Source: Candidatus Aenigmatarchaeota archaeon (GTDB lineage: Archaea > Aenigmatarchaeota > Aenigmatarchaeia > CG10238-14 > SCSR01). Taken from it: a DNA stretch of 49,363 nucleotides. The DNA lies in assembly GCA_039090665.1 (NCBI GenBank), contig JAWCSL010000005.1, forward strand, positions 1 to 49,363, written 5' to 3'. Made by a program: the position numbers and the translations under genes. This document shows positions 944 through 20,320 of this stretch, in pieces. Position 1 is the stretch's first letter. Every line of letters begins with the position of its first letter. Below the pieces are notes generated by a model. The model searched no databases. It had not been told where the DNA came from and worked only from the letters and a program-made list of their open reading frames with translations.

Positions 944-1127
944 AATCTAAATTTAGCTTGAATTTAAAAGAAGTTTAACCTTCAGTTTCTTGTGTCATTA
1001 TAGACTTTAAAATCTCGTCTCTCTTTTTCATATTTTTCTCTAAGCTTAGATTTTTTAAAATTTTAAAAACCTAATAGCGGGGCCTGGATTTGAACCAGGG
1101 ACCTCCGGGTTATGAGCCCGGCGAGCA

Positions 1128-1138
1128 TTCTGTCAAAA
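1128..1138 (-). other. 11-nt relaxed BHB/BHL intron in the D-loop of tRNA-iMet
   Basis: CTGG[AG^T]TTTG ACAG[AA^T]GCTC; excision of TTTTGACAGAA restores a normal D-loop; central helix has 3 of 4 pairs. Confidence 0.8.
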
Positions 1139-1153
1139 CTCCAGGCTGCTCCA

Positions 1154-1176
1154 TTGCGGTTTCCTTTATTGGAAAT
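1154..1176 (-). other. 23-nt BHB intron at tRNA position 7/8
   Basis: GCGG[GG^A]TTTCC-AATAAA-GGAAA CCGC[AA^T]GGAGC: 4-bp central helix and two 3-nt bulges; cutting after the 2nd bulge nucleotide restores AGCGGGG|TGGAGC. Confidence 0.88.
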
Positions 1177-1235
1177 CCCCGCTAGAGCTTATGCCTTTCA
1201 TTGTCCCCGCTATTTGAATTAAATTGATGTTCGCT

Positions 1236-1250
1236 AATTTAAATCTTTAT
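1236..1250 (-). promoter_or_regulatory. BRE/TATA box of tRNA-iMet
   Basis: Minus strand ATAAAGA-TTTAAATT, about 30 nt upstream of position ~1212. Confidence 0.55.
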
Positions 1251-20206: not shown

Positions 20207-20320
20207 CCCCGGATAGCTCAACGGTAGAGCAACCGGCTGTAGCTGAGTGCTTAGGCACTTGGTGACAGCAGTTGCTCATCAGAAACCGGTGGGTTGCTGG
20301 TTCAAATCCGGCTCCGGGGA
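20207..20320 (+). tRNA. tRNA-Tyr(GTA) with a 42-nt canonical intron (20243-20284)
   Basis: CCCCGGA/TCCGGGG acceptor (C1-G72); ACCGG CTGTAG^intron^A CCGGT; BHB CTGT[AG^C]...TCAG[AA^A]. Confidence 0.95.

Follow-up and report, generated by a model that had tools for sequence, protein, structure and literature searches.

Introns of the bulge-helix-bulge (BHB) type in the tRNA genes of Thermoproteales, Nanoarchaeum and ARMAN are spliced by proteins, may lie anywhere in the gene and number up to three per gene (PMC4090602). The text of the same review lists the non-canonical positions 20/21, 22/23, 25/26, 29/30, 30/31, 45/46, 53/54, 56/57 and 59/60, and gives the acceptor-stem intron at 3/4 in Thermoproteales as an "extreme case" (PMC4090602, citing Sugahara 2008). 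From the geometry of the motif we infer that such a 3/4 intron must also draw on bases of the leader. In pre-tRNAs with anticodon-loop introns, the acceptor and D arms are kept folded (PMC4090602). In split and permuted tRNA genes (Nanoarchaeum equitans; the initiator and Tyr tRNAs of Thermofilum pendens), leaders or trailers outside the mature tRNA build the splice motif by pairing with exons, the initiator is a recurrent target and the scores given by tRNA finders are low (PMC4033280, PMC3218864); Chan et al. found the permuted Thermofilum initiator and Tyr genes by over-long promoter distances combined with low scores (PMC3218864). In the text of Kaneta et al. 2018, alpha4-type EndAs with inserts, present in several DPANN lineages, are linked to a greater disruption of tRNA genes, and incomplete tRNA sets are taken to point to undetected disrupted genes (PMC5829648). 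DPANN surveys still report missing tRNAs and ascribe them to loss or to split genes (PMC5829648; Nanobdellota preprint 2026, 10.64898/2026.05.13.725050).

Here, we describe an initiator tRNA-Met gene in a stretch of 49,363 nucleotides (hereafter the window; contig C11) from an Aenigmatarchaeota genome. Its introns share with those of Thermoproteales, Nanoarchaeum and ARMAN the protein-spliced BHB type, the freedom of position and the presence of several in one gene (PMC4090602); however, they occur in a DPANN archaeon whose genome has a single alpha4-like EndA gene, whereas Thermoproteales are Crenarchaeota with an (alpha-beta)2 enzyme. Intron 1 lies between tRNA bases 7 and 8, a position outside the list in the text of the review (PMC4090602), and it is a variant within the known non-canonical BHB introns. 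In view of the 3/4 intron of Thermoproteales, the design has more precedent than the original prediction implied. The site of intron 2 resembles the D-loop site 20/21 of the published list (PMC4090602). As in the split and permuted genes, outside sequence builds the splice motif, the initiator is the target and finder scores are low (PMC4033280, PMC3218864); in contrast to those genes, which are joined in trans or via a circle, the present one is contiguous and in normal order, with its leader in cis. In the text of the papers searched, neither a 7/8 intron nor a leader with a second copy of the acceptor strand is described. We put at roughly 80% the probability that the locus functions as a three-exon initiator tRNA-Met gene, matured by the splicing pathway proposed below.

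A predicted initiator tRNA-Met gene is interrupted twice

The host genome comprises 620,606 bp in 15 contigs, with 34% G+C, and is rated 90.6% complete. The initiator gene is located on the minus strand of the window (1183-1075), in a gap of 404 bp between one ORF that ends at 943 and another that begins at 1348. The locus is not an assembly artefact, and positions 1095-1300 are found without differences in contigs of four runs from four studies; the DNA runs that contain it carry the label hot springs metagenomes. The features of the locus are as follows.

1236..1243, minus strand: TATA-like box TTTAAATT within the motif AAAGATTTAAATT, putative promoter element
1205..1211, minus strand: spare copy of the 5' acceptor strand (termed U), AGCGGGG, an exact copy of exon 1
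1184..1204, minus strand: remaining 5' leader or spacer, 21 nt, of which GCTCT (1188-1184) is a strand of the outer BHB helix
1177..1183, minus strand: exon 1, tRNA bases 1-7, AGCGGGG, with G2-G5 in the central helix and G6 and G7 in the 5' bulge
1154..1176, minus strand: intron 1, 23 nt, between G7 and U8
1139..1153, minus strand: exon 2, tRNA bases 8 to 20a, 15 nt, TGGAGCAGCCTGGAG
1128..1138, minus strand: intron 2, TTTTGACAGAA, 11 nt, D-loop insert separating 20a from 21
1075..1127, minus strand: exon 3, tRNA bases 21-73, 53 nt
1065..1069, minus strand: run of five T that starts 6 nt past A73, putative terminator

Intron 1 consists of the third bulge base A, the inner stem TTTCC/GGAAA with its loop AATAAA, the CCGC of the central helix and the bulge bases AA. 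Exon 3 holds the remainder of the D arm, an anticodon arm that has CAT and three G:C pairs, and the T arm, and ends with the 3' acceptor strand CCCCGCT (1082-1076) and A73 (1075); CCA is not encoded. The T run downstream is likely an archaeal terminator. The exons are collinear and all lie within 137 nt, which by the usual criteria makes this neither a split nor a permuted tRNA gene. Taken together, the sequence data indicate a gene that is real, conserved and twice interrupted.

The first intron lies in a bulge-helix-bulge motif that draws on the leader

The 23-nt insert, the helices and the bulges claimed for 1148-1190 are all present when the DNA is read on the minus strand. The central helix, in which G2-G5 (1182-1179) pair with CCGC (1159-1156), is bordered by the bulges GGA (1178-1176) and AAT (1155-1153). 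TTTCC (1175-1171) and GGAAA (1164-1160) make up the inner stem, and in the outer helix the leader GCTCT (1188-1184) pairs with GGAGC (1152-1148), i.e., with G9-C13. This is the arrangement of an hBHBh' motif, in which a 4-bp helix lies between 3-nt bulges on opposite strands that are each cut past the second base; here GCGG/CCGC stands between GG|A and AA|T, with 5-bp inner and outer helices. It departs from the textbook BHB in two details: leader base -1 and G9 form a U.G pair, and opposite the 3' bulge A1 has no partner. The minimum free energy (MFE) of the 43-nt stretch 1190-1148 is -17.6 kcal/mol, while its shuffles have a mean of -7.3 with a standard deviation of 2.2 (z -4.67; none of 200 as good). 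The strict BHB fold has -16.2, which is 1.4 kcal/mol above the MFE, and the two structures differ solely by slid central pairs and closure by A1:U8, which leaves a 2-nt bulge. In the partition function of the full precursor, the central helix takes the BHB register with a probability of just 0.31. The leader AGGC, upstream of GCTCT, can in the fold prediction pair with GCCT of the D-loop. These features support, on sequence grounds, the view that intron 1 behaves as an EndA-type intron at 7/8.

Bases 2-5 of the acceptor, bases 10-13 of the D-stem and the 5' leader are all taken up by the motif, in line with the conflict that had been claimed with the acceptor stem and the D-stem. Thus, a splice motif can be assembled from an acceptor strand, a D-stem strand and a leader, from which an order of maturation follows in which splicing would come first, folding next and trimming last. 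Splicing ahead of 5' processing is a reasonable inference, the sole escape from which would be cleavage of a relaxed motif without the outer helix. Such an order would reverse the one usually assumed for pre-tRNAs with introns in the anticodon loop.

Removal of both inserts is needed for the initiator cloverleaf

When both inserts are removed in silico, a clean 74-nt tRNA-Met(CAT) body followed by A73 is obtained, while removal of either one alone gives no cloverleaf; with intron 1 alone removed, ARAGORN mis-folds the product as tRNA-Val. Archaeal initiator tRNA-Met is characterized by the anticodon CAU, an A1:U72 pair and three consecutive G:C pairs at 29-31:39-41. The spliced cloverleaf has all of them: the CAT anticodon, A1:U72 and three G:C pairs that close the anticodon stem. 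The original prediction described a single-intron gene from which standard cuts regenerate a perfect initiator tRNA, and here it fails, as the second, 11-nt intron in the D-loop was overlooked and no such product arises unless 1138-1128 is excised as well. Uninterrupted initiator genes of relatives (L007, L014, L016, L017, L028 and L030) have the D-loop AGCCTGGAGT, which is exactly what excision of intron 2 produces; other relatives have inserts of 11-20 nt at the same site. We place the introns at 7/8 and 20a/21 because the cloverleaf needs both excisions and the uninterrupted orthologues match the product.

The motif around intron 2 is relaxed. CTG pairs with CAG next to a G.A. The 5' site falls within a terminal loop of 9 nt and the 3' site, AA|T, within an internal loop or bulge; sliding by one base leaves the product unchanged. 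The hBH register is weak (-2.7 versus an MFE of -11.3 kcal/mol), and the boundaries rest on the uninterrupted orthologues. We compare this intron with the relaxed hBH/BHL mini-intron at 59/60 of ARMAN-2 pre-tRNA-Cys, which has one bulge between two helices and its other site in a loop (PMC3239211).

The gene escapes tRNA finders and is the only initiator candidate found

The expectation that standard finders would miss the gene was borne out: ARAGORN reported nothing at the locus with or without its intron option, and Rfam RF00005 gave a partial match (positions 9-63) of 27.2 bits, below the gathering score of 29 bits. The Rfam tRNA search of the genome returned 38 matches, the initiator locus being the weakest. 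No second initiator was found in the approximately 90% complete genome by the Rfam tRNA search, a scan for CAT anticodon loops or a scan for T-arms. In the CAT-loop scan (5-bp stems) the initiator locus stood alone among the tRNA matches. The other CAT tRNA (C1:35745) contains an intron and, read by eye, has G1:C72. The T-arm scan added two tRNA-Leu genes and nothing else. Hence the sole detected gene for an essential tRNA is invisible to the finders that were run. It is an example of the disrupted genes expected by Kaneta et al. 2018 (PMC5829648), and genes like it offer another explanation for the tRNAs missing from DPANN genomes as well as a concrete search model.

The inner helix covaries among relatives

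Both introns are kept within the genus, in L002 (97% identical), L003/L004 and L005, the last having an additional third intron in the anticodon loop. In L005 the inner stem is TTCCC/GGGAA in place of TTTCC/GGAAA, CCGC is replaced by CTGC (a G.U opposite G4), and leader base -1, opposite G9, is C and not U. We gathered 12 distinct genes with a 7/8 intron by a pattern search built on the end of the intron and exon 2, aligned them with both ends anchored and assessed covariation. All 12 have the inner helix, through ten different sequence pairs; each of its five pairs shows changes on both sides and 94% of its cells are paired, so the covariation expected in related genomes was found for this helix. 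For the proposed structure as a whole, 86.1% of cells are paired versus 27-49% in slid registers, and none of 500 shuffles reached the observed percentage paired or the covariation score. The search pattern itself fixed the central helix, the 3' bulge and exon 2, which leaves the central helix and the exon side little informative. The outer helix, in the register originally predicted, has 4-5 pairs in 6 of 11 distinct rows (67% of cells pair); the remaining rows show shifted registers or hardly any pairing, e.g., L048.

Other relatives have 5'-proximal introns that use the leader at other positions, namely 4/5 in L019 and near 10-12 in L006, L009, L011, L012, L015 and L020, and in the latter group the leader often has CCAGG, complementary to CCTGG of the D-loop. 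As the initiator genes of these relatives and the tRNA-Ile(UAU) gene described below use the leader, leader-assisted splice motifs are a habit of the group.

Some other initiator genes are unusual in different ways. That of L013 (G047:C4, locus at about 1400-1560) looks circularly permuted, with the order D-loop to CCCCGCTA, 2 nt, then AGCGGGGTAG. In L024, identical to L073 (G049:C1), the 5' strand is duplicated (AGCGGGG, 5 nt, AGCGGGG) and so is the 3' strand (CCCCGCTA, 4 nt, CCCGCTA), suggesting that leader and trailer form a helix that stacks on the acceptor stem; the introns of this gene lie in the anticodon stem and adjacent to the 3' acceptor strand. The more distant relatives L033, L048 and L057 have the initiator anticodon loop CCCATAA, that is, C at position 33. 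A U at this position is near-universal in tRNAs.

A spare copy of the acceptor strand precedes the gene

The exact copy of AGCGGGG (1211-1205), absent from the original prediction, lies 28 nt upstream of initiator base 1. Within the 80 nt upstream of each of the 38 tRNA genes, such an exact 7-mer copy occurs in two, the initiator and tRNA-Ile(UAU), each copy matching its own acceptor; these are the genes with introns at 7/8 and 9/10. Among the other 36 genes there is one match with one mismatch and one with two, and the rest have at least three. The tRNA-Ile(UAU) gene lies outside the window (G000:C8:29712-29851, minus strand) and reads GGGCCCG, 13 nt, GGGCCCGTA, a 23-nt insert and then GCTT..., its exact copy of GGGCCCG being 20 nt upstream. 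In its MFE fold, bases 11-19 pair with G1-G3 and leader bases -7 to -1, yielding an 11-bp outer helix; the central helix has a G.A at its inner end, and the usual cutting rule would place the intron at 9/10. This gene has a canonical intron as well, and Rfam detects only the portion past the first intron.

Among the 12 distinct genes with a 7/8 intron, U is present with at most one mismatch in eight and with two mismatches in one, and is absent from three (L041, L045 and L061). Across lineages its spacers range from 4 to 24 nt. In the six genus-level leaders the invariant blocks are limited to ATTTAAA..TT, the GCGGG core of U (6/6), GAAAGG, CTC and the exon, and position 7 of U varies (G, A or T). 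L002 differs from the window at four positions (97% identity over 146 nt), all of them in U or the next seven bases (1197-1211); two of the changes are in U itself, and in both L002 and L005 U still pairs with the 3' strand at six of seven positions. U-like copies also occur upstream of initiator genes without a 5'-proximal intron (L024, L029). A phylum-wide search with the pattern AGCGGGG N3-32 AGCGGGG matched 39 of 370 genomes, but this raw count is uninformative, and only individual loci are used here, because a reversed-pattern control likewise matched many genomes (roughly 30 rows, by eye) and because most loci are unrelated: among the 30 pattern loci listed, 5 are at initiator genes and 25, mostly in coding sequence, are not. 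We also looked for a second BHB that would excise U with the spacer, or the spacer with the true 5' strand (termed S); in eight frames checked by hand there were no complementary 4-mers, and this candidate was rejected.

The TATA-like box starts 32 nt upstream of U and 60 nt upstream of base 1, and a box 31-33 nt ahead of U is found in L001, L003 and L005. At tRNA-Leu(TAG), Val(GAC) and Ser(CGA), the TATA-like motif ATTTAAA..TT stands at a distance of 31-39 nt from base 1. Because the distance from TATA to U equals that from TATA to base 1 in tRNA-Leu(TAG), transcripts probably begin at or near U, about 28 nt upstream of base 1, a placement based on one motif. Positional mapping of promoters gave no clean signal in these upstream regions, which are too AT-rich, and the TATA call stands on that one shared motif. 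A sigma-70/terminator scan was discarded as uninformative in an archaeon.

Predicted folds place the spare copy on the 3' acceptor strand

In folds of the precursor that include U, its pairing with the 3' strand (1082-1076) has probabilities of 0.67-1.0 over seven pairs, pairing of S with that strand has a probability of 0, and the splice hairpin is kept. With U removed, the probability of pairing between S and the 3' strand is 0.51-0.58 in the window, 0.35-0.40 in L002 and 0.90-0.99 in L005, and the MFE no longer contains the hairpin; in L003 and tRNA-Ile(UAU), however, the splice hairpin survives in silico without U. In silico excision of both introns leaves U as the preferred partner of the 3' strand, with probabilities of 0.89-1.0 versus 0 for S. 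Since the 3' strand thus stays with U in the spliced model, its hand-over to the real acceptor stem is unexplained by secondary structure alone; the final transfer to S would need tertiary folding or capture by RNase P, both outside the model.

From these folds and the conservation of U we propose, tentatively and at somewhat less than even odds, that U holds the 3' acceptor strand as a placeholder during splicing. We would lean slightly against, while taking seriously, the broader idea that U represents a new class of pre-tRNA leader elements, conserved placeholders acting in cis that keep the 3' acceptor strand occupied while S folds into a splice motif, and so enable BHB introns within the first dozen bases of archaeal tRNA genes. 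Our estimate is held down because the predicted hairpin survives without U in some genes, the model keeps U on the 3' strand after splicing, three genes with the same intron lack U, L002 carries its changes in and just after U, and U-like copies occur at genes without such an intron. If the idea is true, U would be a simple RNA-encoded folding aid that may recur across archaeal phyla, and it would help to explain why DPANN and other archaeal genomes seem to lack some tRNAs. Of the whole locus, U most deserves experiment.

The copy could instead be a non-functional relic, left by a duplicative insertion that produced the leader, a second acceptor copy and the intron, with the 7-mer still decaying. 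The two changes in U of the closest relative, L002, together with the clustering of all four differences in or after U, the variable position 7 within the genus and the 3 of 12 same-intron genes without U fit such decay. Yet GCGGG is invariant in all six diverged leaders although adjacent bases vary freely, L002 and L005 keep six of seven pairs with the 3' strand, and different lineages have U at spacers of 4 to 24 nt. Moreover, in L019, where the exon copy is split by the 4/5 intron, the upstream copy is contiguous and equals the spliced sequence. On balance we regard a relic as unlikely, albeit a serious alternative to a placeholder function of U. A further possibility is that the upstream copy (1211-1205) is the real exon 1 and that all 51 nt of 1204-1154 are intron, the mature sequence being identical. 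The distance of 32 nt between the TATA-like box and U, equal to that between box and base 1 in tRNA-Leu(TAG), agrees with this, and all predicted folds, whether spliced or not, pair U with the 3' strand. But past G7 of U there is no bulge flanked by a helix, nothing upstream of U pairs with G9-C13, and the covarying inner helix adjoins the second copy and not U. The bases next to U in tRNA-Ile(UAU) are GA, and the required U8-A9 thus comes only after the second copy. Three of the 12 orthologous genes do without U altogether, and with an RNase P RNA in the genome leaders can be trimmed. An upstream exon 1 therefore seems very improbable to us.

Finally, the locus might be a decaying pseudogene, with another initiator tRNA lying in unassembled sequence or encoded by a split gene. 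The genome is about 90% complete and in 15 contigs, split or permuted initiator genes do occur in Archaea (PMC3218864, PMC4033280), and one relative, L013, has a permuted initiator gene. Against this, the exons are intact and give a perfect cloverleaf, the architecture is kept with compensatory changes across the genus and beyond, the genome scans found no other initiator candidate, and the locus is identical in contigs from four studies; a pseudogene is, in our estimate, if anything even harder to credit than an upstream exon 1.

Processing enzymes encoded in the genome and a proposed splice-first pathway

One EndA gene was found, on C12, encoding 188 aa with Pfam PF01974 and PF02778. The protein aligns end to end with the alpha4 enzyme of M. 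jannaschii (1a79, E 3.9e-29). Its catalytic Tyr and His are separated by six more residues than in 1a79; the ARMAN-2 enzyme 4fz2 also has extra residues there, and the two loops match in length. Kaneta et al. 2018 distinguish loop classes L1-L3 (PMC5829648). A tblastn search of the genome for a second EndA subunit gave EndA itself and a spurious match (E=2) in the leucyl-tRNA synthetase gene. RtcB is encoded on C14 (547 bits) and an archaeal RNase P RNA is present (133 bits), so the 28-nt leader can be trimmed after splicing.

We envisage the following pathway for the three-exon gene. Transcription would start about 28 nt upstream of base 1, near 1211, at or near U. S would then be locked in a hairpin in which the leader GCUCU pairs with G9-C13, G2-G5 pair with CCGC and the intron is closed on itself; this hairpin could fold as soon as it is transcribed and would present the bulges GG|A and AA|U four bp apart. 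The emerging 3' acceptor strand would meet U rather than the engaged S, and their pairing would keep the 3' strand from drawing S out of the splice motif; the resulting helix may also offer the end-processing enzymes an acceptor-like structure. The single 188-aa EndA would cut at both bulges and RtcB would join the exons, the 11-nt D-loop intron being excised likewise from its relaxed motif. Afterwards S would pair with the 3' strand, the D-stem would form and RNase P would trim the 28-nt leader, presumably in that order. The presence of the enzymes, the structure of the gene, the motif and the covariation form the directly supported part of this explanation.

Other tRNA genes of the genome

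At least six tRNAs of this genome (Met, Lys-UUU, Leu-CAA, Trp, Gln-UUG and Cys; G000:C1:35745-35851, C9:45746-45857, C12:17153-17268, C12:31978-32080, C12:7759-7871 and C13:23315-23418) have anticodon-loop introns that share the 3' motif ..TTTGAT..(A-rich)..GATGAA(A)GAAAC. The leader of the initiator gene contains ATGAAAGG, which is similar to this motif. The shared element may be protein-binding or k-turn-like, or it may be a sign of intron spread. A gene at G000:C12:24957-25045 (minus strand) is called tRNA-Pyl(CTA) by ARAGORN and, by eye, reads as tRNA-Phe(GAA) in which an insert of about 15 nt separates the D arm from the anticodon stem. In the window itself, a tRNA-Tyr(GTA) gene at 20207-20320 (plus strand) has a 42-nt anticodon-loop intron; it is missed by ARAGORN with default settings and is found by Rfam and by ARAGORN with the intron option.
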